This document shows positions 6,400 to 43,250 of a DNA stretch of 43,424 nucleotides, piece after piece. The first letter of the stretch is position 1. Each line of letters begins with the position of its first letter. This DNA comes from a virus (taxonomy: Duplodnaviria > Caudoviricetes): IMG/VR virus record IMGVR_UViG_3300011335_000213, positions 1-43,424 of that record; one strand, written 5' to 3'. Under the pieces are notes generated by a model. That model was not told the DNA's origin and searched no databases. It was given only the letters and a program-made list of their open reading frames with translations. Both the position numbers and the translations under genes were made by a program.

Positions 6400-6412
6400 T
6401 TGTCTTCCTTTA

Positions 6413-6480
6413 CAACATTGAGACGGCGACTTTGCCGTAGATTAATTGTACAACTCTTTTTTGGGTGCCGTACAACTATT
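6413..6480 (-). promoter_or_regulatory. Repeated early promoter plus 5' hairpin element, copy 1
   Basis: Minus strand: TTGTAC-19nt-TACAAT, then ACGGC-AAAGTC-GCCGT-CTCAATGT. Homologous to 14765-14831 and 17928-17993. Confidence 0.8.
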
Positions 6481-6481
6481 T

Positions 6482-8266
6482 TTATTTGATGCCTAAATCT
6501 GCCAAAATGGCATAAGCTTTTGTGATATACCATTGACGGTCAATGTCTTTAGGCGGCTTGGCTGGCAGCAGCATCAAGGGCCTGGCACCATCAGTCATGG
6601 CAACTTTATTCCCATTCTTTTTATAGTTGATTGAACCTGTCTCTCCAAGTGCATAGTACCAACGAACAGCTTTGCCTAAATAGGTATCACCTTTAACTGC
6701 ACCGCCTGTCACAGACCTGACTGATACAAACATCCTGGTATCTTGGCATGACCAGATAGTTGTCTCAATAGGTATGTCTAACTGAAGATGATCAACCACG
6801 GCTTGCACACAAACCTGAGCCGTTGGAGTTTTAGACAACTCAGCATCAGCATATGCACCTTTTGCTTTATAAGAGCCTGAAGGCTTAAAAGCAACGTAAT
6901 TATTGATGTCTCTAGAGTACAGAGCGGTGTAAGCCGTTTCTTCTGTATTAAAGCCAGTTGTCTCTTCCCAGGCTGCAATTATTGAAAATAAGGCCGCTTG
7001 GTTGCGCTTGTGGCAATAGATCACTATGCCATCAGTATTAGCACTCACAACCTGTATGCCAGAGCCTTCAAGAGCCTCTATCAGCATCAACAAGGCCAAT
7101 TGACCTGTAACCGTGGTTTGGATCAACAAATCAGGGCTGTACAGAGCTGACCAGCGGTTGCCGAACTTACCAAAGCTAGAATTGATGACAATTTTTAAAG
7201 AGGCATCAGTGACTTTGTCACCGGTCCTTTTGGCATGGACTCTCTTCTCAACAATCGACTTATAGGCAGTCAAGAACTCAGTGCCAATGTGCTTAGGGTA
7301 AAGCCTTTGGTTAAGAATGATGTTAGGGTAGTAACTAGTCACATCACGGTCAACTAAGATGTAGTCTGTGCCTGCAATGTAGTTGACTGTCTTCTCACAA
7401 GAATGAATGCCGCCAATGCCTAACTGATAAAGCGTTTGGTTGATCTTGACTTTGAGCTTACCTACCTTTTCAGGCTCAGCAGCATCGCCTTTTTCATTAA
7501 GCGTAAAAGCCTCACTCTTAAAGACTTCAAGAGCATTGACCAACTCAGGGTGCTTGAACTTGATGAACTTAGGAGGCACATAGTTAAATGAAAAACCATT
7601 AGGTAAATCAGGCCTATAAATCTTGGTTCCTTTGATTGCTTCAATCTGCTTCTTAATCACAGCTTCTGCAATCTGAGCATCTGACTTTGAGCGTAAGTCA
7701 ATCCCTAACTCCTCGCCCATCTTTTCACGCAAGTCAATCTGGCTGCTTAGCTTGTTAAACAAGTCAATTGTTGTGTCAAGGTCATTAATGCAATAGCTAG
7801 TCAAGAGCTCACGTTCATCTAGCTTGATGATTGCACTAGGCTCAATTGGCAAGTCTTGCATACGCTTACTATGCAAACGGCCGCCATAGATTTTTAGACT
7901 GGCTTTGCCAGGTGCAACATCAATCAAGTCAATGTGGTCTATGTATTTGCACTGAGGCAAGTTGTACTTAGACTCTGTGTCCCAAGCTCTGACATTATTG
8001 ACAATGATGTCATCTGACATGATCTTTAACTTTGAAGCATCAAAGCCTGCAATGGAGCCTTTTAAAAGAAGCAAGTCATATCTATTGCCATTAAAAGTGA
8101 TGATGGTGTATTTGCGCAATACGCTATTCAGCTGCTCTGCATCAAAGTCTGACCAATCAGAACGCTCAAAAGTCACAACCTTGTCATTTGCCATAGACTT
8201 TATGGCAATCAAAAAGTAGTTTGTATAGCACTCAATGTCAAGCACTGCTTTTGTTCTACTCGACAT
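6482..8266 (-). CDS. Family B-type DNA polymerase with 3'-5' exonuclease domain
   Basis: ExoI LDIEC and ExoII FNGNRYD; polymerase motifs DVTSYYP, KIVINSSFGK and SANTDG. Confidence 0.9.
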   Translation of the reverse strand: MSSRTKAVLDIECYTNYFLIAIKSMANDKVVTFERSDWSDFDAEQLNSVLRKYTIITFNGNRYDLLLLKGSIAGFDASKLKIMSDDIIVNNVRAWDTESKYNLPQCKYIDHIDLIDVAPGKASLKIYGGRLHSKRMQDLPIEPSAIIKLDERELLTSYCINDLDTTIDLFNKLSSQIDLREKMGEELGIDLRSKSDAQIAEAVIKKQIEAIKGTKIYRPDLPNGFSFNYVPPKFIKFKHPELVNALEVFKSEAFTLNEKGDAAEPEKVGKLKVKINQTLYQLGIGGIHSCEKTVNYIAGTDYILVDRDVTSYYPNIILNQRLYPKHIGTEFLTAYKSIVEKRVHAKRTGDKVTDASLKIVINSSFGKFGNRWSALYSPDLLIQTTVTGQLALLMLIEALEGSGIQVVSANTDGIVIYCHKRNQAALFSIIAAWEETTGFNTEETAYTALYSRDINNYVAFKPSGSYKAKGAYADAELSKTPTAQVCVQAVVDHLQLDIPIETTIWSCQDTRMFVSVRSVTGGAVKGDTYLGKAVRWYYALGETGSINYKKNGNKVAMTDGARPLMLLPAKPPKDIDRQWYITKAYAILADLGIK

Positions 8267-8684
8267 AGTTGCTCCAAACCCGCCCGCTGCTTAGCCATAA
8301 ATCTTTGCCACTAGAGATGTAGTCTTGGTCTGCAACAATCCTTTTTATTGGCGTGCATAACACTAACTTTGTGCAGCTGATACAAGGAGCTGTTGTGCAA
8401 TAAAGCGTGTCTGCTGCATCAACGTCTTTTAATCTTGCAATTGCATTTTGTTCAGCATGAGCTGACACACACAAATCAAGGCCAGTACCGCTAGGCAATG
8501 TGGAACCAGGACAAGGCGTGTCAATGCAATGTTGCGACCCAGGAAAAGAACCGTTGTAGCCTGAAGATAAGATGTAACCATTGCCGGTTACAACAGCACC
8601 GACTTGACGGCGTGAACAAGTTGCACGTTTAGCAAATGCACGTGCAATATCCATATAAGTTTGATCTAGTGTTGGTCTTGTCAT
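8256..8684 (-). CDS. dCMP deaminase
   Basis: Zn-deaminase motifs HAEQNA and PCISC, plus ATCSRRQVGAV and GYNG. Confidence 0.92.
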   Translation of the reverse strand: MTRPTLDQTYMDIARAFAKRATCSRRQVGAVVTGNGYILSSGYNGSFPGSQHCIDTPCPGSTLPSGTGLDLCVSAHAEQNAIARLKDVDAADTLYCTTAPCISCTKLVLCTPIKRIVADQDYISSGKDLWLSSGRVWSNYVE

Positions 8685-8705
8685 AATTTTAATTGTACAA
8701 CATTT
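8685..8705 (-). promoter_or_regulatory. Internal promoter (-10 TACAAT), probably leaderless
   Basis: Same GTTGTACAATT core as the repeated element; the -10 box ends 7 nt before the ATG and there is no Shine-Dalgarno. Confidence 0.5.
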
Positions 8706-9839
8706 TTAATCAAACCCATGAACTTTTAGTATGTATTCACCTTTGCTCATACCTGCTAACTTAAGCACATGATCATCAGAAGGATGGACTGTCAAAGAGT
8801 TAAATGACTTGATCAAGCCGTGTTCAAGCATTGCTTTTTGACGACCATACGGATGGTCAATGATTGTGCTGCTGTTCCAGATTTTGTCACGGTCCAGGTG
8901 GTTGTAGTCATAGCCAGGCCTAACGTAGTTTTCTATCCAACGGATTCCATCACAAAAAATATCTTCGCCGTCATAAGCAGTAGAACCAATGTCTTTGCAA
9001 AACTTCATTGTGACTTCATCTAAAAAATCTTGCTCATTGCCTTTACTTAAAGGTTTAGCTGCGTATTTCAAGCACTCGACTGCATTGCTGCCATAAAAGA
9101 ATGGGCTATCTAGATTAACGTATTCCGGGAAAAAGTCCGCAATGTCGCTAACAACTGCAGCGTACTGGAATTTGAATGCACGCATATCTCTCTGCTTGTT
9201 CCACTCAAACATCCATTCGCCAATGACTCGTAAGTCACGTCTGCCTTTTGATTCCAGCCATTCTGCCAGCTCTCTTGCTAACTTAGGTGCATATCTACAT
9301 AAGAAGAAGTCACCTCCAAGTTTGTAGTCGCTAGTAGGCTTTGGGAATGCAGGGAACTGATAACCAACAGATGTGTAGATAGTTGACTCTCTGTTAAAAA
9401 TAACATGAGTCATTTGCTCAATTGTGTCGCATGACCAAAACTTTGGCAAGATTGTGTTGTTATAGCCGCTAGGTTTTTTTGCGTAGTTGATACCACTGCC
9501 TGTGACTCGGTGAACTATAAACACATAAAGCCATTCAGCTAAACCCCACTCGCCTTCAACTCCATCAAATGATTCACAAATTGGTTTGCGCACATCATGC
9601 AGCTTATGAGCATACGGGTGGTCTGATGACGTGTTGTACCAGAGGTCTAAAATAATTTGTGTAAAGCCTGCATACTTTCTGTTAGCAACATCATAGAGTT
9701 CAACATGCCGCATCAAGTCATCTTTGACTGACCCTTCTAGATGTGGGATAGTTCCTAGATTGCATTCTTGCTGCTGCGTCTTAGCCATAGCAGCATAACG
9801 AACCATCTCGTCATAGTAAGCGGTTGTTTCGATTCTCAT
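8706..9839 (-). CDS. Divergent amino acid:DNA transferase (aGPT-Pplase1-like, glycosylase-related helical fold)
   Basis: Motifs in the same order as the family pattern I recall: LYDVANRKY ~ F-x-N-V-x-R; FQYAAVVSDI...FFYGSNAVECL ~ F..YE...DL...GPGA..GL; GEDIFCDGIRW ~ EH.LCE..KY. Lies in a nucleotide-modification operon. Confidence 0.6.
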   Translation of the reverse strand: MRIETTAYYDEMVRYAAMAKTQQQECNLGTIPHLEGSVKDDLMRHVELYDVANRKYAGFTQIILDLWYNTSSDHPYAHKLHDVRKPICESFDGVEGEWGLAEWLYVFIVHRVTGSGINYAKKPSGYNNTILPKFWSCDTIEQMTHVIFNRESTIYTSVGYQFPAFPKPTSDYKLGGDFFLCRYAPKLARELAEWLESKGRRDLRVIGEWMFEWNKQRDMRAFKFQYAAVVSDIADFFPEYVNLDSPFFYGSNAVECLKYAAKPLSKGNEQDFLDEVTMKFCKDIGSTAYDGEDIFCDGIRWIENYVRPGYDYNHLDRDKIWNSSTIIDHPYGRQKAMLEHGLIKSFNSLTVHPSDDHVLKLAGMSKGEYILKVHGFD

Positions 9840-10762
9840 AATCCACGCTCCAAGTCACGCATGTCATGCCATGCTCTTTGACTATCTAAAGGTATATCTT
9901 TGACTTGGTCGTAAAACTTGTTGACCTTATCGTCGGTCCCTACATTGATGAAGATAGAACCTTTTGCAGCAAAATTTTCAAAGTCTTCCCAGCACTTGGC
10001 ATCGTAGTTTGATGTAGATGGAAAAGGTGGGCGTTTACTTAATGGCACATCTTTTAAGAATGGCTGTGATGCAGACCAAAGAGTAGCATGACCAATCTCT
10101 CCATCGTGCATGTTCCTAGCAACAACAACGCCTTTACACAAAGCTTCTGGCCATGCAATCTGAAGAGCTCTAATTGCTGTGCCTGTTGAAACTGACATCC
10201 AAATCTCTTTAGGCTCTTCATCAAGCAGCTCTGCAATCTGTGTGCCTAGCCTAACAATGCCTGCTGTTACTAATGGTGTTTTTGCCAAACCAAAAGGCAA
10301 GTACTTTGCACCGTGCTGCTCTGCCCATTTCTTAGCATAGCTGTTCAATGTAGGCATGGCTGCAATCTTTACAAACCGCAAGTCTGCGCCATATGCAAGC
10401 AGTGCCTTTTGATGTTTAGAAGGTTCACCAGAAGCAGGACAAAAGAACACACACTTTTTACCATACATGCCGGCAAGCGTTGCAATTGCATCCATAGCCA
10501 TACCTACTCGAGGCGCACAATAAACTAAAACATCTTCTTTACATTCTGCAACTAGCTGCTCTGCGCCATAGCCTTTTAAACTTGACTGGCTAGCATCGCC
10601 TCTAAAGATGTATTTGTCATCGTATCGATGAACTACTGGCTTTGATAGCTTAGACATAAAGCCTTTGCTCATTGCGTGATAGTGACTGCGTGCTTCTAAG
10701 ACGGTCATACCTAAAGGAATGTCTTTGTTAGACTTGTCCGCCGTAATAGTGAAAAGGCTCAT
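9836..10762 (-). CDS. Fold-type II PLP-dependent enzyme (TrpB / cysteine desulfhydrase / ACC deaminase-like)
   Basis: FRGD....SLKGYG (Schiff-base Lys region), ALLAYGADL, phosphate-binding loop SVSTGT, and YDAK near the C-terminus. Confidence 0.8.
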   Translation of the reverse strand: MSLFTITADKSNKDIPLGMTVLEARSHYHAMSKGFMSKLSKPVVHRYDDKYIFRGDASQSSLKGYGAEQLVAECKEDVLVYCAPRVGMAMDAIATLAGMYGKKCVFFCPASGEPSKHQKALLAYGADLRFVKIAAMPTLNSYAKKWAEQHGAKYLPFGLAKTPLVTAGIVRLGTQIAELLDEEPKEIWMSVSTGTAIRALQIAWPEALCKGVVVARNMHDGEIGHATLWSASQPFLKDVPLSKRPPFPSTSNYDAKCWEDFENFAAKGSIFINVGTDDKVNKFYDQVKDIPLDSQRAWHDMRDLERGL

Positions 10763-11721
10763 GCTCTGCCCCAGTTAAAACGGCGGTAACTATTAGGAGC
10801 AATGTGGACCGATGAACTTAGCTCCATATATTTCTTGGCATACTCTTCACCATCCATAGAGTACCATTCTTCAGGAGGTCTAACCACTTTGTTTTCACAA
10901 GACATGAGGTCTATAAAGTAGCTAGTCCAGTCTCGCCTAGAGTCTATTGAACCGCAAAAAGGTTTGTCTTTGTAGTAACCAGTCTGTGGGAGTCTACGCG
11001 CCTCATACTCGACAGGAACAGGTGCTGCTATTTCTACAGCTATTTCAAATTCATTTTTTATGAACTCAATCACTTCGCAGTAACGCTCGCATAAGTTTTC
11101 TATGGCTTTTGCTGAGTCTGGTTGGCGGCCTATATGGTGCCGTATGTCGATAGAGCCTGCAACAAGAGTTGCTTTGCTTGGCATTTTCTTTAACTTACCT
11201 AATTGCTTTACAAACTCGCCTTTAGTTAAAGCTCCATGCAGAGTTAAACCGTTTGTACGCAAGACCATACTTCTAGGTGAAGCAAAAGCCGTAGCGTGAC
11301 TGTCGCCAACGGCAACCTTTACAAAACCTAACTGGCTTTGCAAAATAGTTTGACTGTTAGCAAGTCTAAGTTTAAAAGCCGTTAGCAAGCTTGGCGTTAG
11401 ACGCGGCGAACAAGTTGCTTGGCCTATCCGCTTTTCTAACTGCTCTCCATAGTCAGGCATAGGCAAGTCTAAACTGAATAGATTGCCATTAAAGTTAACT
11501 AGTTGATCGATCTTGTCAACAATCTCGTCAGTGACGCCGCCAAACAGATTAAGACCACCTCCAAAGTTTACGCCATGTTCCCAGTAAAGGTTGCTGCATG
11601 AACTAAGGTCTGTGTTTTTAGTTGCAATTTTTGTGTTCATGCACTCTGCCCAATGCATGGCCCAGCCACGCACATGTGATTTCTCACTGACAGGTATAGA
11701 AGCAAAAGGATTAAAGATCAT
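10759..11721 (-). CDS. Protein with SGNH/GDSL hydrolase-like C-terminal domain and unknown N-terminal domain
   Basis: Block I VGDSH, block II NGLTLHG, block III-like GSIDI, block V-like SSVHI. Confidence 0.6.
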   Translation of the reverse strand: MIFNPFASIPVSEKSHVRGWAMHWAECMNTKIATKNTDLSSCSNLYWEHGVNFGGGLNLFGGVTDEIVDKIDQLVNFNGNLFSLDLPMPDYGEQLEKRIGQATCSPRLTPSLLTAFKLRLANSQTILQSQLGFVKVAVGDSHATAFASPRSMVLRTNGLTLHGALTKGEFVKQLGKLKKMPSKATLVAGSIDIRHHIGRQPDSAKAIENLCERYCEVIEFIKNEFEIAVEIAAPVPVEYEARRLPQTGYYKDKPFCGSIDSRRDWTSYFIDLMSCENKVVRPPEEWYSMDGEEYAKKYMELSSSVHIAPNSYRRFNWGRA

Positions 11722-12368
11722 GGTTGCACCAAGTGAAAATGTTTAGGATAAACATGCAATGAGCCTGCGTTCCAGAATAAGTTGCCTTTAACTAGGTCAG
11801 GATATGTTTCATTCAAACGAGTAAGTGCTAAGTCAAGAACCGTGTCTTGCCAAAATCGATCGCCTTTATAGCCATAGACAACATCGTTGCTACGCATGTT
11901 GACTATGTGATGCAGCTTGCCATCACGAATCAGCAGCTGAGTGCTGTATGTGCACATAAAGTCTTTCATGCCATCAACTACTGAGTCTTCATGCATAGAA
12001 GGGCGAATGTAGATCATCACAGCTTGACGACTGTTTTTGTTTTTGACCAACGAGTCTATGGCTTTATGGAATTGGTAGCCGTTTGTTTGGCTAAAGATAC
12101 ACCAGCCATAGTTGCTATTGATCATGCCTTTTGAACTAGCTACTTGCTTCCATATCAATGGAACAGGAGGTGCTATCTCATTGACATTGAGTGATTGACT
12201 CATGTACCAACGCAACTCTTTAACATTCCATAGGTCATTGACTTCTCCAAAAATCAAAGGCTCATCTGCAATAAATGAAGCATTGACAATCTCAACGTTG
12301 CCGTCTTCTGCAAAGTCTTGTGCTGCTAGCTTATTTGTCAAGATATTACGGATTTGTTGAACGTTCAT
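11718..12368 (-). CDS. dCMP hydroxymethylase (T4 gp42-like, thymidylate synthase fold)
   Basis: Long stretches match T4 gp42 as I recall it: ASFIADEP.IFG, ELRWY, IWKQVASSKG.INSNYGW, SRQAVMIY.RPSM, DGMKDFMCT, VNMRSNDVVYG, GSLHVY. Asp at the cytosine-specificity position (YKGDRFW). Confidence 0.9.
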   Translation of the reverse strand: MNVQQIRNILTNKLAAQDFAEDGNVEIVNASFIADEPLIFGEVNDLWNVKELRWYMSQSLNVNEIAPPVPLIWKQVASSKGMINSNYGWCIFSQTNGYQFHKAIDSLVKNKNSRQAVMIYIRPSMHEDSVVDGMKDFMCTYSTQLLIRDGKLHHIVNMRSNDVVYGYKGDRFWQDTVLDLALTRLNETYPDLVKGNLFWNAGSLHVYPKHFHLVQP

Positions 12369-13123
12369 GGAATGCTCCTTACAAACCTATCATCTTTGTT
12401 TTTATTGTGTGCAGCATGTTCCATCAAGATGAACAGTTGAGTGCCTGCATGTGCAAGGTGGTCTAATCCTGACTCAGGGTCTTTGTCTTCGCCAGACCAG
12501 AAAGACATCATGTGACGCATGATAGATCCATAGGTACGTGACCAAACAACGGTCTCGCCTTGACGGTAAGAGTTTGCAAAATACTTCTTAGCACCAAAGC
12601 CAAAGACATTGGCAATTTGCATCATAGGTTCAATTGGAAGCAGGTCAAGACGGACCTTGGTTGCATCAAACTTTGGTGCAAAGCCTGCCACAACATTACC
12701 GTCTGAACTAGGTGCAAAGTCAAATACAACCTGCGTGTCTGCATCTTCGTCTAAGATTAATTGCAGCTCTGCTTCTGGAGCAGTCCAGCCTTCTGGTTTA
12801 ACTAAGTCACGTTTAAAGCCACCACGCTTTTCACCATTCTGACCAAGCTCTTTGGCCATGTTTGCTTCCATGACCTTTTCAAAGCCTGCAAGCAACGGGA
12901 AACCATGACGCTCTAAAGTGCCTACTGCAAAGACTATCAAGTCAAGCAAAGCATCGTATTGATCGACCTGTGTGTCTGCTGCAATGTACTCGTTTAACTC
13001 TTCGAGCATGGCAGCAGACCTAAATTCTTTTTCTTCTACAGTAAGATGGCTTGGCCCTATTGTATTTTCTATGCCAAACTTCTGATGCATGGCCTTCACA
13101 AGGTCCATTACTTTTGATTCCAT
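12365..13123 (-). CDS. Fusion of a MazG/PRA-PH-like NTP pyrophosphohydrolase and a dATP/dGTP diphosphohydrolase (DUF5664-like) domain
   Basis: N-half EELNEY...DALLD...V..ANMAK...KPEGW..PE; C-half KFDATK.RLDLLP...GAKKY...W.R...RH...GEDKDPESGLDHLAHA. Confidence 0.85.
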   Translation of the reverse strand: MESKVMDLVKAMHQKFGIENTIGPSHLTVEEKEFRSAAMLEELNEYIAADTQVDQYDALLDLIVFAVGTLERHGFPLLAGFEKVMEANMAKELGQNGEKRGGFKRDLVKPEGWTAPEAELQLILDEDADTQVVFDFAPSSDGNVVAGFAPKFDATKVRLDLLPIEPMMQIANVFGFGAKKYFANSYRQGETVVWSRTYGSIMRHMMSFWSGEDKDPESGLDHLAHAGTQLFILMEHAAHNKNKDDRFVRSIP

Positions 13124-13201
13124 TGTTAACTCCTATTCGTATTGATTGTTTGGACAGGCCACGCTCCTGATAGGCACACAAAGCTAGTGCTAGCTTAGTC
13201 T

Positions 13202-13726
13202 TTAACCTAAAAGGTCAGCGTCTTCTTTAGCAAAGTCAGCAAAGTCAGAGCTAGCTTCAGTCCGACCACTAAATGCTTCACCATCTTTTACCTTCATGAC
13301 ATTGTCAAGCGCAATCGATACGCCTTTGCCACCTGTTGGATGCTCCCATGCATAGGCACGAATAGAAGCACGGTAGTAAGCACCGCTATAGATCTCATCT
13401 GCAGACATGATTGGTTTAAGGTCTGTGCCAACGATGCCTGGCTTGTTGTTAGACGTGGCTTGCACGCTGTAGCAACCTGCCAGTTCAGGCCGATCTTCTT
13501 CATCACCATCTTTAACTGGTGACTTCATCTTAGGAGGAATTTTGCCCCATTTACCTTTAGCTGTTTCCTCAATCAAAGCATTCAGTTCATTCCAGAACTG
13601 ATTCTTTTTAGGAAGAGGTATGGTAATTTGGTACCGTGCCTTGGCGCCTTCTACGCCTTTAATTGCATGCGGCTCAAGCAAATGGACAAAAGAACCTCTG
13701 AACTCGGGTGTGATAATTTTTGACAT
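13202..13726 (-). CDS. Single-stranded DNA-binding protein (DUF2815 / Enc34-like)
   Basis: SFVHLLEP, PVKDGD, YSGAYYRASI, GVSIALDNVMKVKDGE, acidic C-terminal tail. Confidence 0.88.
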   Translation of the reverse strand: MSKIITPEFRGSFVHLLEPHAIKGVEGAKARYQITIPLPKKNQFWNELNALIEETAKGKWGKIPPKMKSPVKDGDEEDRPELAGCYSVQATSNNKPGIVGTDLKPIMSADEIYSGAYYRASIRAYAWEHPTGGKGVSIALDNVMKVKDGEAFSGRTEASSDFADFAKEDADLLG

Positions 13727-13785
13727 TGATTTTCCTTTAAAACGTTGAAGTAAATTGGCCGTCTTTCCGGCCTGTCATTTGGTCG

Positions 13786-14754
13786 TTAGACCACATCCAT
13801 TAGCAAGTCACGTGCTTTGTTTTTAATAGCATTGCCATAACCAAACCATGCTGCATTTTGATTAAGACCATGGTCTACATGTTCTGTAACAGCATTGAGT
13901 AATGCCCATGCGGAGCCGCTAGCTTCTGGCAAATCAGAACCTAAAGCTTGACCATTAAACAAAGCCATGATTGACTGAAAAGCTTTTGTGTTTTCTACTG
14001 GCACAGCTTCTTTGGTTTTAATGCCATTGACTGTAGTAGTACGGACAGACGCAGGCAAAAGCAACTTAAGAAACTCCACAGCAAAAGTAGAGTTGACTTC
14101 TTTTGCAGCTAAGCGGCGTGAGTCAATCAAGAACTTGTCGAATGAGTTAAATGCAATGCCTAAGTCAAGAGCTGTGTCTTTAGCACTGAATTCTTTAGAG
14201 TGATTGATCTTGATGGTGTCGCCGCCTTCTTCTGTAGCAAAGCCAAGAGTGTTTGAACAAACAACACGCACACTAGTAAAGCGCGCCGTTGTTGCCAATG
14301 TGCCGTCATAAGATGTGGCCAACAGAACATAAGGCTTGACTACGTCTTGACCAACTACTGTTGCGCCGTCATTGACTTTTGCCATTGCCCAAATACGCTT
14401 GCCGTTGGACAATGAACCTGCTGTTTCAAGTTCGAAGTTGTTGTTCTCAGCTAACTTAGCAAAGAAGTCTAAGACGTCTGCAGGCTGCACAACTTTGTAG
14501 TCTTTGCCAACAACGCCAAGAGGTGCATTTGTGTCTGAGCGATACAGCACATCGCGTGTTGTATGTGGCAGCAAAATATCGCCAGCAGAGTACTGAACCA
14601 TTGAGCGTTCGACTGTATGTGACAAGCCTGCTGCTTTGGCCCATACTTCAAGAGGTTGACCTGCTTCGAGCTGCTGGCCAAGACCGTGCCATGCCTTTTC
14701 ACCTACGTGAGCAAAGTTGGCTTGTGCGTTTGAGAAGTCTAATTCGTGTGACAT
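13786..14754 (-). CDS. DUF932/DUF945-family phage/plasmid protein
   Basis: AWHGLG, YKVVQP, ETAGSL..GKRIW, LATSYDG, VRVVCSNT, WALLNAVTEHVDH. Confidence 0.88.
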   Translation of the reverse strand: MSHELDFSNAQANFAHVGEKAWHGLGQQLEAGQPLEVWAKAAGLSHTVERSMVQYSAGDILLPHTTRDVLYRSDTNAPLGVVGKDYKVVQPADVLDFFAKLAENNNFELETAGSLSNGKRIWAMAKVNDGATVVGQDVVKPYVLLATSYDGTLATTARFTSVRVVCSNTLGFATEEGGDTIKINHSKEFSAKDTALDLGIAFNSFDKFLIDSRRLAAKEVNSTFAVEFLKLLLPASVRTTTVNGIKTKEAVPVENTKAFQSIMALFNGQALGSDLPEASGSAWALLNAVTEHVDHGLNQNAAWFGYGNAIKNKARDLLMDVV

Positions 14755-38479: not shown

Positions 38480-39394
38480 ATGAGTATGCGCTATCAAGCT
38501 GGTATTGTTTTGCCGGGGTACAACCCGTTAAAGGTTCCCAATGCGCCTACGATTGGTACGGCTACGGGTGGGAATGTTTCTGCGTCTGTAACCTTTACTG
38601 CGCCTTCTGATATAGGTGGTGGGGCTATCACTGGGTACACAGTTGTCTCAACACCGAGCGGTATCACTGGTACTGGCGCATCTTCTCCCATTACTGTAAG
38701 TGGTTTGACCAATGGTACGGCGTACACATTTAAAGTGTTTGCGACAAATGCTTACGGCCCAAGCCCTTTGAGTGCGGCTTCTAACTCGGTAACACCAGCA
38801 TTAGCAATTGGCGACGCTTATCAAGGCGGATTTTATGCTGGACAAATTTCAACTACGGGCAATAGTATTGCTGATTACAACTTGGTAGTTGGCCCATTAT
38901 CTTCTGCACAAAACGCAAGTGTGCAATTTAAAACATCTCAAACAGATGATGGTACAGTTTCTAAAATTAACGGCCCCGCCAACAGTGCATCAATGAATAG
39001 TGCTAGTAACCCAGCGGCATTTTTCTGTGAAGGTCTTACTATCGGTGGGTTTAGTGACTGGTATATGCCAGCATATAACGAGTTAGATGTTTGTTACTTT
39101 AATTTAAAACCAACGACATATGCAAATGATACTGGTTCTGGAATAAATGTAAACGCTGTTCCGGCTAGGGCAAGTTACTACACGGCTGGCAACCCTGCAC
39201 AAACTTCAGCAACCAACTTTAGAAGCACAGGTGCAGAGCCTTTTATTGCTACCCTTTACGCAAACTTTTACTGGAATAGTACACAATACTCTCCTGAACG
39301 AGCTTATTTACAGACCTTTCTTTACGGAGCGGTGGCTTTCAACGTAAAAACTGCTACAGCGCCTGTCCGAGCCATTCGCCGTGTTGCAGTTTAA
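38480..39394 (+). CDS. Fibronectin-III plus DUF1566/Lcl-like (C-type lectin fold) putative adhesin, paralogue 1
   Basis: PNAPTIGTAT...GLTNGTAYTFKV.A.N (FN3); IG..YQGGFYAG, DWYMPA..EL, YW.ST, VRAIRRVAV. Confidence 0.8.
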   Translation: MSMRYQAGIVLPGYNPLKVPNAPTIGTATGGNVSASVTFTAPSDIGGGAITGYTVVSTPSGITGTGASSPITVSGLTNGTAYTFKVFATNAYGPSPLSAASNSVTPALAIGDAYQGGFYAGQISTTGNSIADYNLVVGPLSSAQNASVQFKTSQTDDGTVSKINGPANSASMNSASNPAAFFCEGLTIGGFSDWYMPAYNELDVCYFNLKPTTYANDTGSGINVNAVPARASYYTAGNPAQTSATNFRSTGAEPFIATLYANFYWNSTQYSPERAYLQTFLYGAVAFNVKTATAPVRAIRRVAV

Positions 39395-39402
39395 GGAAAC
39401 AT

Positions 39403-40074
39403 ATGCCTAATTTTTCTGGAATGTGGACAGTCACTCAGCAGATGCAAGCTAAGGGTCAAAGTCTTTGGCCTGCTGTTGTGCCTACCGTAATCGGTCAGGC
39501 GTTTGGTGGCGGGTTTTATGCGGGTCAAATTGGTGTTTCTGGTGTTGCTACACACTACATAATTGTTGGGCCAGCGGCATCTGCACAAAGTCCTTTAGCG
39601 TGGAAAAATGCAAACACAGCAACACCCGGTGCTGACAGTGATATTAACGGCCCACAGAATACTGATGACATGGTTGCTGACGGTAACTCTACAGTGTATC
39701 CTTGCGCTCACTTTTGTAATAATTTAGTTACTGGTGGACAATCAGACTGGTATATGCCAGCAAAGAACGAACTTGAGGTTTGCTTTTTTAACTTAAAACC
39801 CACAACAGCAAACAATAACACAGCTTCAGGCATAAACCCAAACGCTGTTCCTGCAAGAGCAAGTAACTATACTGCTGGCACTCCAACACAAACGTCAGCT
39901 ACAAATTTTCAATCAACTGGTGCAGAAACATTTGCCCCATTTGATATTTATTGGTCTAGTACTGAGAGTTCTGCAACGCAAGCTCGTAATCAATACTTTA
40001 ATACGGGCGGTCAATACACTAACAATAAGACTTCTGGTTACGTTGTCCGTGCTATCCGCAGAGTCGCAGTTTAA
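39403..40074 (+). CDS. DUF1566/Lcl-like putative adhesin, paralogue 2 (no FN3)
   Basis: IGQAFGGGFYAG, DWYMPAKNEL, YWSSTE, VRAIRRVAV. Confidence 0.8.
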   Translation: MPNFSGMWTVTQQMQAKGQSLWPAVVPTVIGQAFGGGFYAGQIGVSGVATHYIIVGPAASAQSPLAWKNANTATPGADSDINGPQNTDDMVADGNSTVYPCAHFCNNLVTGGQSDWYMPAKNELEVCFFNLKPTTANNNTASGINPNAVPARASNYTAGTPTQTSATNFQSTGAETFAPFDIYWSSTESSATQARNQYFNTGGQYTNNKTSGYVVRAIRRVAV

Positions 40075-40083
40075 GGAATAGCC

Positions 40084-41082
40084 ATGAGCATTAAACAATA
40101 CCCCGGCGGCATCATCACCAAGAACCCAACAGCACCGACAACTTCGGCGGCTAAAGGTATCTGGACGCTTGACCAAGCATCAAACTACGTGAAGCAAGGC
40201 ATCTGGCCTAGAAGCCCCGGCGCTCCTACGATTGGGACTGCTACGGCTGGTACGTTGTCCGCTACTGTTGCATACACTGCGCCATCTGACCTTGGAACGG
40301 GTACAGTAACATACACAGCAACGTCTAGCCCCGGTGGTTTGACTGGTACAGGCGCATCTCCTATTACGGTCAGCGGATTGACTGGTGGAACGTCCTACAC
40401 CTTTACAGTAACAGCATCAACCCCCGGCGGTACAAGCCCATCAAGCGCAGCATCAAATAGCGTAACGCCAACATCACCATCAATTGGTCAAGCATTTGGC
40501 GGTGGTTACTATGCTGGAAAAATTTCAACTACAGCAAATCAAGTGGCTACACATTATTTAATAGTTGCTGATGCCACTGTGGGCGTATCCTACGGTACAA
40601 CATGGGGGACTATGGGAGTTGTCACTGGCGTAACTTCACGCATAGATGGCCCGACAAACTCATCGACTCTTGCTGCTTTAGGAGTTGATTATGCAGCGGC
40701 TAATTTTTGCGAAAATTTAAACACAGGCGGATATACTGATTGGTATATGCCAGCCATTGATGAACTTGGAGTAGCATATTATTTTCTAAAGCCCAATACA
40801 AGTAACAATGATACTGGGTTTGGGGCAAATTTATACTCTGTTTCACCACAGCCTTACAATACAAACTACGCTACAACTGACCCAACACAAACTACGGCAG
40901 CCGCTTTTCAAACCGCAGGAGCGCAAGCATTTCTTGGAACTTCTGGCGATCATTACCAAGCAAGTTTTGAAAATAATTCCAATACATCTAGAGGTGTTGT
41001 GGGGAGTAGCGGTAGAAACGATCCTAAAAACAAAAACAATACCGCTAGTTATACAAGAGCCTTTCGTAGAGTTGCAGTTTAA
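40084..41082 (+). CDS. FN3 plus DUF1566/Lcl-like putative adhesin, paralogue 3
   Basis: PGAPTIGTAT...GLTGGTSYTFTV; IGQAFGGGYYAG, DWYMPAIDEL, RAFRRVAV. Confidence 0.8.
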   Translation: MSIKQYPGGIITKNPTAPTTSAAKGIWTLDQASNYVKQGIWPRSPGAPTIGTATAGTLSATVAYTAPSDLGTGTVTYTATSSPGGLTGTGASPITVSGLTGGTSYTFTVTASTPGGTSPSSAASNSVTPTSPSIGQAFGGGYYAGKISTTANQVATHYLIVADATVGVSYGTTWGTMGVVTGVTSRIDGPTNSSTLAALGVDYAAANFCENLNTGGYTDWYMPAIDELGVAYYFLKPNTSNNDTGFGANLYSVSPQPYNTNYATTDPTQTTAAAFQTAGAQAFLGTSGDHYQASFENNSNTSRGVVGSSGRNDPKNKNNTASYTRAFRRVAV

Positions 41083-41566: not shown

Positions 41567-41998
41567 ATGTACATTTGCATAACCGAAGTAGACGCAGTAA
41601 CTAAAATAGTCTGCACAGCCGAGCCACAACGCACAGGCCCATCAATGCCTGCTGTCAAGGGCTATACACATTTATGGCACGATAGTTCAACATGGCCTGT
41701 TGCGACAGCATCCGATGGCACATATCTCAGAGCGCCAAGATACTATGGCACTTGCGATGATGATGCAGACACTACCATTGCTGGTGTTTTGCAAGTCTTA
41801 ACAGAAGCAGAGTACACCACCCTCAGAACCGCAGAACACGAAGCCCGTAAGCCGTACCCATCTTGGGTTGGCTACTTAGACACAATGACTTGGGCTGCAC
41901 CTGTAGCAAGGCCAGCAGATGCCGTGATGAACGGTGGGAATGTACGCTACCAGTGGGACGAGGCTACGGTCAACTGGGTTGCCCAGACTCCAGCATGA
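41567..41998 (+). CDS. Tail-fibre-associated protein, paralogue B
   Basis: IT.VDAVT...CTAEP.RTGPS.P.VKG...RAP..GTC.DDADT...EH.ARKPYPSW shared with paralogue A. Confidence 0.75.
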   Translation: MYICITEVDAVTKIVCTAEPQRTGPSMPAVKGYTHLWHDSSTWPVATASDGTYLRAPRYYGTCDDDADTTIAGVLQVLTEAEYTTLRTAEHEARKPYPSWVGYLDTMTWAAPVARPADAVMNGGNVRYQWDEATVNWVAQTPA

Positions 41999-42813
41999 AA
42001 GAGTTTTTCTTCATCTCTGGTTTGCCACGGTCAGGCTCGACCCTACTCTCGGCTATCTTGCGCCAGAACCCTGAGTTCTATGCAGACATCTCATCCCCCG
42101 TGCAAGGCTTGGTGGCATCGACTATCAACGTCATCACGGGCAGCGAGAGCAACCACTTGGTAGATGAAGACAGGCGCAGGCAGATACTCAAGGACGTAAT
42201 CAACGCATACTACAAAGCCGTCACGCCAAACACCGTGTTTGACACTAGCAGGGGCTGGACATCAAAAACATCACTGCTCAAAGACCTCTACCCACAGACC
42301 AAGATCATTTGCTGTGTGCGTGACTTGCCTTGGATACTGGACAGCTTTGAGCGTATATCGGCTAAGAATTCTTTGTACGGCGCAAGCCTAACAGATGATG
42401 AAGCAAATCAGACAGTCACTACAAGGTGCGATGCCCTAATGGATGTCAAGAAAGAGGGTCAAGTGGTCAAGCCCTACTACTTTCTAGAAGAAGGTTTACT
42501 GCTAAACCCAGACATGATTATGTTGGTGGAGTACGAAATGCTTTGCAAACAACCTGAGAGTGTGATGCGGGAGATATACCAGTTTATTGGCAAACCCTAC
42601 TTTGACCACGATTTCAAAAATGTTGAGTACGAGAACGAGGTGTTTGACAAAGCCTTGAACATGAAGAGTCTGCACACTGTACGCAAGGAAGTAACTTGGC
42701 AAGAGCGTCCATCCATCCTGCCTAAATCGGTGTGGGAAAAGTACGCAGGAAAAGACTTTTGGCGCACACCAGCACCTGACTTTGCTGTCAAACAACTGTA
42801 TAAAGTCAAATGA
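41995..42813 (+). CDS. Sulfotransferase-family protein
   Basis: 5'-PSB FFISGLPRSGSTLL, KIICCVRD...ILDS, VEYE.L...P. Start at ATG 41995 (ATGA overlap). Confidence 0.85.
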   Translation: MKEFFFISGLPRSGSTLLSAILRQNPEFYADISSPVQGLVASTINVITGSESNHLVDEDRRRQILKDVINAYYKAVTPNTVFDTSRGWTSKTSLLKDLYPQTKIICCVRDLPWILDSFERISAKNSLYGASLTDDEANQTVTTRCDALMDVKKEGQVVKPYYFLEEGLLLNPDMIMLVEYEMLCKQPESVMREIYQFIGKPYFDHDFKNVEYENEVFDKALNMKSLHTVRKEVTWQERPSILPKSVWEKYAGKDFWRTPAPDFAVKQLYKVK

Positions 42814-43250
42814 AAATACTGATCATGGGCTTGCCCGGTGCGGGTAAAACCACTCTTGCTACAGCCTTGGCAAGGGAGCTACAGTGCGTCCACTTCAATG
42901 CTGATGAAGTGCGTAAGGAGATCAATAAGGATCTTGGCTTTAGCGTGGCGGACAGGTTGGAACACGCAAGACGCATGGGCGTGATGTGCGACATTGCTTC
43001 AAGGTACGGTGCTCATGTGATTGCCGACTTTGTTTGCCCTACGCCTGAGACACGGGAAGCCTTTGGCGCTCACTTCATTGTCTGGGTGGATCGCATCAAA
43101 GAGGGAAGGTTTGAGGACACCAACAAATTATTTGTACCCCCAGAAAATCACGATGTACGGGTCGATGGTCAGTTTGGTATGCAGTATTACGCAGAAGAAA
43201 TTGCCAAAATGGTCGAGCCACCGCAGCTTAAAGCTCGTTGGACTTATTGA
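42810..43250 (+). CDS. Adenylylsulfate (APS) kinase-like P-loop protein
   Basis: GLPGAGKTT, NADEVR.....DLGFS..DR, DFVCP, F.PP; shorter than canonical CysC. Confidence 0.8.
   Translation: MKILIMGLPGAGKTTLATALARELQCVHFNADEVRKEINKDLGFSVADRLEHARRMGVMCDIASRYGAHVIADFVCPTPETREAFGAHFIVWVDRIKEGRFEDTNKLFVPPENHDVRVDGQFGMQYYAEEIAKMVEPPQLKARWTY

Follow-up and report, generated by a model that had tools for sequence, protein, structure and literature searches.

The described systems closest to the locus considered here are the thymidine hypermodification pathways of phages M6, ViI, PaMx11, PhiW-14, and SP10 (Lee et al., PMC8989533; Wen et al., PMC11472151), the T-even pathway to 5-hydroxymethylcytosine (hmC) and glucosyl-hmC (gp56, gp42, gp1, cd, alpha-/beta-gt), the 5-hmC carbamoyltransferase (Yang et al., PMC8670742), and the 5-hydroxycytosine arabinosylation of RB69 and DLP3 (PMC13326640). 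In the literature searched, cytosine hypermodifications are sugars or carbamoyl groups, and amino acids are found as decorations only on thymine, where a kinase is needed. The locus is a five-gene operon in the viral (Duplodnaviria; Caudoviricetes) IMG/VR record IMGVR_UViG_3300011335_000213, all 43,424 nt of which were analyzed and are called the window below (43.4 kb; estimated completeness 72%). It is a real, conserved, and biochemically uncharacterized variant of pyrimidine hypermodification, and is read here, with a probability of roughly 0.6, as a cytosine hypermodification pathway with acyl activation, amino acid transfer, and decarboxylation by a pyridoxal phosphate (PLP) enzyme. Such a cassette would join the cytosine and thymine branches and add new activation chemistry; it would also give DNA a new base and reveal an O-acyltransferase that acts on DNA bases, and an enzyme acylating or amino-tagging hmC could serve 5hmC sequencing. 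Full-text searches, which did not cover subscription journals, found no paper that describes such genes decorating phage hmC with amino acids or acyl groups, and the available part of the MetaGPA paper has carbamoyl-hmC only.

Like the thymidine pathways, the window has a thymidylate synthase (TS)-family hydroxymethylase, a protein of aGPT-Pplase fold with an ExxxC motif, and a homologous PLP enzyme, in genes clustered near a polymerase. Its TS homolog is predicted to be dCMP-specific, however, no 5-HMUDK kinase was found, its helical protein gives no family-profile match to ADDT or clade 1, and it has, unlike those pathways, a chimera of an SGNH domain and the N-terminal part of a T4 beta-glucosyltransferase (BGT)-like protein. 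It shares with the T-even pathway a gp42 ortholog, a pyrophosphohydrolase, a dCMP deaminase, and the acceptor domain of beta-gt, but the SGNH domain replaces the UDP-sugar-binding domain, no gp1 kinase was found, and the phages of the window's type have genomes of 54–56 kb and are not T4-like myoviruses. The carbamoyltransferase likewise moves a non-sugar, O-acyl-type group onto hmC in phage DNA. It belongs to another enzyme family, however, the available text reports its product as an end point and has no helical transferase or PLP step, and the main text, as far as available, does not mention PALP, SGNH, or aGPT.

Proposed nucleotide supply and the predicted dCMP hydroxymethylase

The five genes lie on the minus strand (13123 to 8706) and overlap by ATGA at all four stop/start junctions, as a sequence-only reading of the window had described. 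The first (12365..13123, 252 aa) encodes the dual nucleotide pyrophosphohydrolase recognized in that reading, with a MazG/PRA-PH-like N-terminal domain (Pfam PF01503, E 4.9e-6) and a dATP/dGTP diphosphohydrolase-like C-terminal one (dGTP_diPhyd_N, PF18909, E 4.1e-28). Judging its substrate from gene context, it would have the role of T4 gp56, removing dCTP and supplying dCMP.

The second gene (11718..12368, 216 aa; Thymidylat_synt) encodes a TS homolog with 50% identity to T4 gp42 over 220 aa (PDB 1b49, phmmer E 1.6e-63), as against only 32–34% over ~70 aa for the TS homologs of M6 and PaMx11. The catalytic residues are kept in ELRWY (E51) and DFMCT (D136, C139), followed by RSND (D162) and YKGDRFW (D170); D136 is at the L143 site, D162 at the D169 site, which is not Asn, and D170, which aligns with T4 D179, at the N177 site. 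In the available text of PMC13326640, dCMP selection is tied to Asp at 177 and non-methyl products to an acidic residue at 143, and 5-hydroxy-dCMP synthases are recognized by Asn at 169. Given D170, D136, and D162 together, hm-dCMP is the expected product. The identity to gp42 and these residues support the T4 gp42-type dCMP hydroxymethylase first proposed for this gene, with Asp at the pyrimidine-specificity site, predicted to make hm-dCMP. A 5-hydroxy-dCMP synthase of the RB69 gp48 type was also considered and rejected, as the window reads RSND (D162). In the available account of RB69 and DLP3, an Asp177-type TS homolog also starts cytosine modification, but the route needs D169N, absent here, and uses glycosyltransferases.

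A chimera of BGT-like and SGNH domains

The third gene (10759..11721, minus strand, 320 aa) had been described as SGNH-like. That holds for residues ~131–317, which have the SGNH fold, while the remainder (~1–125) is a front domain resembling T4 BGT. The SGNH serine is Ser141, in a GDSH motif present in 138/138 full-length matches, and His306 is invariant in 96 sequences; the aspartate of a DxxH triad motif was not found, the chimera having SSSVH instead (consensus xSSVH). The front domain was tested against BGT because of a weak Pfam hint of PF09198 (E 0.078) in a fused homolog, one of 30 proteins. A profile of 75 chimera N domains matched T4 BGT alone weakly, and matched a profile of eight BGT sequences with a probability of 94.6 (E 6.7e-8), in an alignment of 100 columns that begins at the protein's N terminus. 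None of 60 column shuffles came near this (best score 19.9, vs 55.3), and among the matches listed in the reverse search from BGT, 22/22 were of the chimera family. The chimera's NLFGG aligns with NFFGG of BGT, a loop with a role in base flipping, and its D85 with T4 BGT D100. In 96 close sequences D85 does not vary, and 76% of a wider set have it; D100 is given as the catalytic residue of T4 BGT in the available text of bioRxiv 2023.12.21.572611. By these profile comparisons, the N domain can be assigned as a homolog of the acceptor/DNA-binding domain of BGT. The UDP-glucose-binding C domain of BGT is not present in the chimera, its place being taken by SGNH, and the protein is a candidate hmC-DNA O-acyltransferase. 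According to the available text of PMC4111573, T4 BGT glucosylates 5-hydroxymethyluracil (hmU) in a duplex only if G is the opposing base, which fits a substrate at C positions.

Among 150 distant helical homologs listed, of 173, seven have the chimera fused N-terminally to the helical protein. This is the activator-first order of SP10 gp186, where the N-terminal domain is a kinase and whose model matches the window's helical protein. Acylation is suggested as the activation step because a hydroxyl-presenting domain and an acyl-enzyme domain are fused where SP10 gp186 has its kinase. The sequence-only reading had the SGNH protein as a final (de)acylase; the BGT-like front domain and the fusions to helical transferase-like domains elsewhere make it more likely that the chimera acts early, on hmC itself.

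The alternative closest to that earlier interpretation is that the chimera makes acyl-hmC as its final product, or adds the acyl group to an already completed side chain, with the helical protein using plain or otherwise activated hmC; the result would still be a new cytosine, reached in another order. Such end-product chemistry has parallels in the acetyltransferase that ends the PaMx11 pathway and in O-carbamoyl-hmC, a known stable end product in the available text of PMC8670742. It also suits the stand-alone chimeras of Tenacibaculum phage PTm1 and of Aeromonas phage 25, where the neighbors are a UDP-galactopyranose mutase and a GT-B-looking gene with no Pfam glycosyltransferase match. The chimera/helical fusions in seven homologs and in 44RR argue against it, however, as does the BGT-like domain with D85, which points to a free hydroxymethyl acceptor; in addition, the known transferases require a leaving group, and no kinase to provide one was found. 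On balance this alternative is unlikely.

The helical protein

The last gene of the operon (8706..9839, minus strand, 377 aa) encodes a helical protein for which an aGPT-Pplase/HhH-glycosylase fold had been anticipated. The fold search agrees: the fold is HhH-glycosylase-like, with the transferase PaMx11 gp46 as best structural match, and the catalytic Glu/Cys motif, ExxxC, is conserved (E292 in 67/68, C296 in 66/68). PaMx11 gp46 uses Cys247 to clamp the base and Glu243 to bind a metal, and M6 gp51 and ViI gp247 cannot do without the corresponding Cys and Glu. Its description as amino acid:DNA transferase-like stands as regards fold and motif, but not family. Membership in ADDT (PF18724, clade 2) by sequence was rejected: 0/101 close members matched the profile at E up to 1, a search in which the positive control M6 gp51 scored E 1.4e-46, and HHalign gave a probability of 1.2%. 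For clade 1 (HMUDK_hel, PF18723) there was no Pfam match to the protein or to 101 close members, and the ExxxC motif aligned at E 0.054 only. Language-model neighbors of the protein carry PF18723/PF18724, and point toward clade 1; in the nearest ESM Atlas clusters (score 0.97) PF18723 is on 11–13% of members. The protein appears to belong to the aGPT-Pplase superfamily as a separate clade, and is a candidate enzyme for transferring a group to the C5 methylene.

With this fold, the helical protein might instead be a DNA glycosylase for repair or discrimination (acting, for instance, on hmU:G left by hmC deamination), with only hmC or acyl-hmC in the DNA and a metabolic PLP enzyme. The HhH glycosylases AGOG, AlkA, and EndoIII are close behind the transferase in the fold search and top the Foldseek list, at non-significant E-values, and in related large phages the same cluster includes an HhH-GPD (MBD4-like) gene or a weakly UDG-like one. 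Where a glycosylase is recognizable, however, it is a separate gene, and the best structural match, the conserved ExxxC, the PF18723/PF18724 neighbors, and the match of the PLP enzyme to M6 gp52 all favor a transferase, leaving a glycosylase as the least probable of the alternatives weighed here.

The PLP enzyme

The fourth gene (9836..10762, minus strand, 308 aa) matches PALP at E 4.4e-8, its 33.2 bits falling just under the cut-off of 35. Aligned with M6 gp52 (HHalign probability 95, E 3.3e-8, 212 columns), its K63, present in 11/11 dereplicated members, coincides with K36, the predicted aldimine lysine of gp52. A PLP enzyme of hypermodification type, as originally suggested, is supported by this homology, the protein being assigned from sequence to fold-type II as a distant homolog of the M6 gp52 DNA decarboxylase. 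Its closest cultured relatives by tblastn are three records (36–29% identity) annotated as DNA methylases; the one of these examined joins a methylase domain to the PLP domain, and the family resembles a DNA-tailoring module in shared use. In gp1 of Erythrobacter phage vB_EliS_R6L (L023:3780-6200), which has a PAPS-reductase-like gene nearby, a PLP domain with 36% identity to that of the window is joined to an N6/N4 methylase domain, possibly for another base hypermodification.

A possible kinase-free pathway

Known amino acid:DNA transferases need a kinase-phosphorylated base, 5-phosphomethyl-dU (PMC8989533). The sequence-only reading overlooked this requirement, and no such kinase was found for this operon. 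The 5-HMUDK kinase PF18748 is in none of five records searched (G000, G001, G002, G006, G007), nor in 44RR, phage 25, or PTm1, with M6 positive as a control, and tblastn with M6 gp54 or PaMx11 gp49 found no match in G006 or G007. The relative G007 is complete (54.4 kb, with terminal repeats) and has the same operon; none of its 104 open reading frames (ORFs) of at least 100 aa matches a kinase, glycosyltransferase, methylase, or TET family, which agrees with the earlier remark that no glycosyltransferase is visible.

That hmC is further modified by the chimera, the helical protein, and the PLP enzyme is very probable, and the group added is probably derived from an amino acid or amine. More tentative is a kinase-free route in which the chimera O-acylates hmC, the helical clade swaps in an amino acid, and the PLP enzyme trims it. 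In a first step, from established knowledge of these families, the pyrophosphohydrolase would drain dCTP and the gp42 homolog make hm-dCMP; host kinases would phosphorylate this, and the phage polymerase would incorporate the resulting hm-dCTP, putting hmC into DNA. The chimera would then bind hmC:G DNA through its BGT-like domain, Asp85 activating the 5-hydroxymethyl, and an acyl group, most simply acetyl, would pass from the Ser141 acyl-enzyme of SGNH to the hmC hydroxyl, the ester standing in for the kinase-made phosphate leaving group of the thymidine pathways. In a third step, by a mechanism shown for M6 gp51 and ViI gp247, Cys296 of the helical protein would add to C6 and expel the acyl group, the exocyclic methylene being trapped by an amino acid, and finally the PLP enzyme would decarboxylate the adduct. 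With serine as the amino acid, which ViI uses, this would yield 5-(2-aminoethoxy)methylcytosine. The exact order of acyl activation is itself put forward with slightly less than even confidence. The likely purpose would be escape from restriction and from enzymes that recognize hmC or glucosyl-hmC.

Several observations weigh against this pathway. No dNMP kinase was found, including T4 gp1. The chimera has no detected helical partner in phage 25 or in PTm1, where the second TS is of D169N type. The literature searched shows no transferase activity for clade 1, and the clade-1 protein M6 gp55 is dispensable in vitro.

The modified base could also be at T positions, if the adjacent dCMP deaminase (8256..8684, minus strand, 142 aa; PF00383, E 2.4e-19) turned hm-dCMP into hm-dUMP and the downstream enzymes used hmU, as their M6 and ViI counterparts do. 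The deaminase gene directly follows the operon, T-even deaminases accept hm-dCMP, and all characterized helical and PLP homologs act on hmU. It is close to the cassette in just 24/92 loci, however; T4, with both deaminase and hydroxymethylase, keeps hmC; the single TS-family gene of each of the complete relatives G006 and G007 is Asp-type; and duplex hmU is a BGT substrate only with G across from it, as noted above. This makes a T-position base very unlikely. In the cytosine pathway, the deaminase supplies dUMP to the host thymidylate synthase and could also deaminate hmdCMP.

Co-occurrence and distribution

The cassette is common in viral metagenomes. The helical protein is encoded by at least 582 IMG/VR stretches, and both 55-kb phages and large T4-like phages carry the cassette. 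The neighborhood survey took the best 80 of at least 582 and the best 80 of at least 562 stretches, 20 from a first scan, and seven from genome_contigs, for a total of 174 loci, some of them duplicates and many short. In the 80 SGNH-anchored loci, the helical gene was present in 67, PLP in 66, and TS in 58, with no match to the kinase, full BGT, ADDT, or clade 1 in any; the 91 helical-anchored loci had SGNH in 60, PLP in 56, and TS in 40. When the SGNH sequences of all 174 loci were clustered at 70% identity, the helical gene was found with 40/40 clusters, PLP with 34/40, and TS with 32/40. The co-occurrence with an Asp-type TS that the sequence-only reading looked to is strong, with D169 and D177 in 99 of 100 TS matches and no readable motif in the other. 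Longer records have SGNH and PLP in four of five cases, sometimes far from the helical gene. One record of 174 kb, rated complete, has no TS match; by the gene order of a relative, TS would fall just past its end.

A second, divergent helical paralog, which the window lacks, is found in 67 of the 91 helical-anchored loci (L019, L045, L092, and others). It is ~335 aa long and matches the window's helical family with an HHalign probability of 87%. These loci are from larger phages with an HhH-GPD/MBD4-like or weak UDG-like gene, and some have a divergent Asp-type TS (DTPCN, ~29% identity). All seven genome_contigs matches (L205-L211) are in metagenome-assembled bins of unrelated taxa, with helical, SGNH, and PLP genes, and are probably phage contigs binned with bacteria.

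Cultured phages with the chimera

In the Aeromonas phages 44RR2.8t and 31, the chimera (ORF233c, 30% identity) is fused to a helical domain with an EIACC motif and a sub-threshold match to PF18723 (17.2 vs 25 bits). The 44RR genome is like the window in its Asp-type gp42, gp56, and lack of alpha-/beta-gt, but the helical domain is a different one, not detectably of the window's clade, there is no PLP homolog by tblastn, and the neighbor is a sodium:solute symporter. The available text of Petrov et al. (2010; PMC2993671) describes these phages as being without glucosyltransferases and leaves further hmC modification open for such phages. If the proposed pathway is correct, the fused version would explain hmC decoration in both.

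The symporter gene of 44RR2.8t (ORF234c; L021:4399-8379) is directly upstream of the fusion, and its product may import the hmC-attached group (sugar, polyol, or amine). The Aeromonas phage 25 locus (L022:3521-6792), with its mutase, possible glycosyltransferase, and stand-alone chimera together, suggests an acylated galactofuranosyl-hmC. In PTm1 the stand-alone chimera (L213:4767-5786) is ~77 kb from a divergent TS (L220:1444-2121) with the D169N 5-hydroxy-dCMP signature.

Genomic setting of the operon

The operon is in the replication arm, with a single-stranded DNA-binding protein on one side and the polymerase on the other. As the earlier reading had noted, the deaminase and polymerase follow it: the deaminase starts 21 bp past the helical gene and overlaps by 11 bp a family-B-like phage DNA polymerase (6482..8266, minus strand, 594 aa; phrog_1252, E 4.9e-194, and weakly PF03175, E 0.007). 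Contigs of 3/3 other runs fill all 30 bins of positions 6400–13800, with no single piece spanning them, and gene order is unchanged in viral contigs whose proteins are ~90% identical, so a misassembly was rejected. Runs sharing at least one fifth of the window's sampled words (possible source excluded) are labelled river, lake, freshwater, or aquatic.

Two other regions of the window are of note. At 41863–43250, in the tail-gene region, a sulfotransferase (PF13469) adjoins an APS kinase; neither was found in the complete relatives G006 and G007, so that their role is probably in sulfation of the virion or surface rather than of DNA. At 38480–41082 there are three successive Lcl_C-like proteins, two of them also with fibronectin III, the Lcl_C match being below the cut-off in two.

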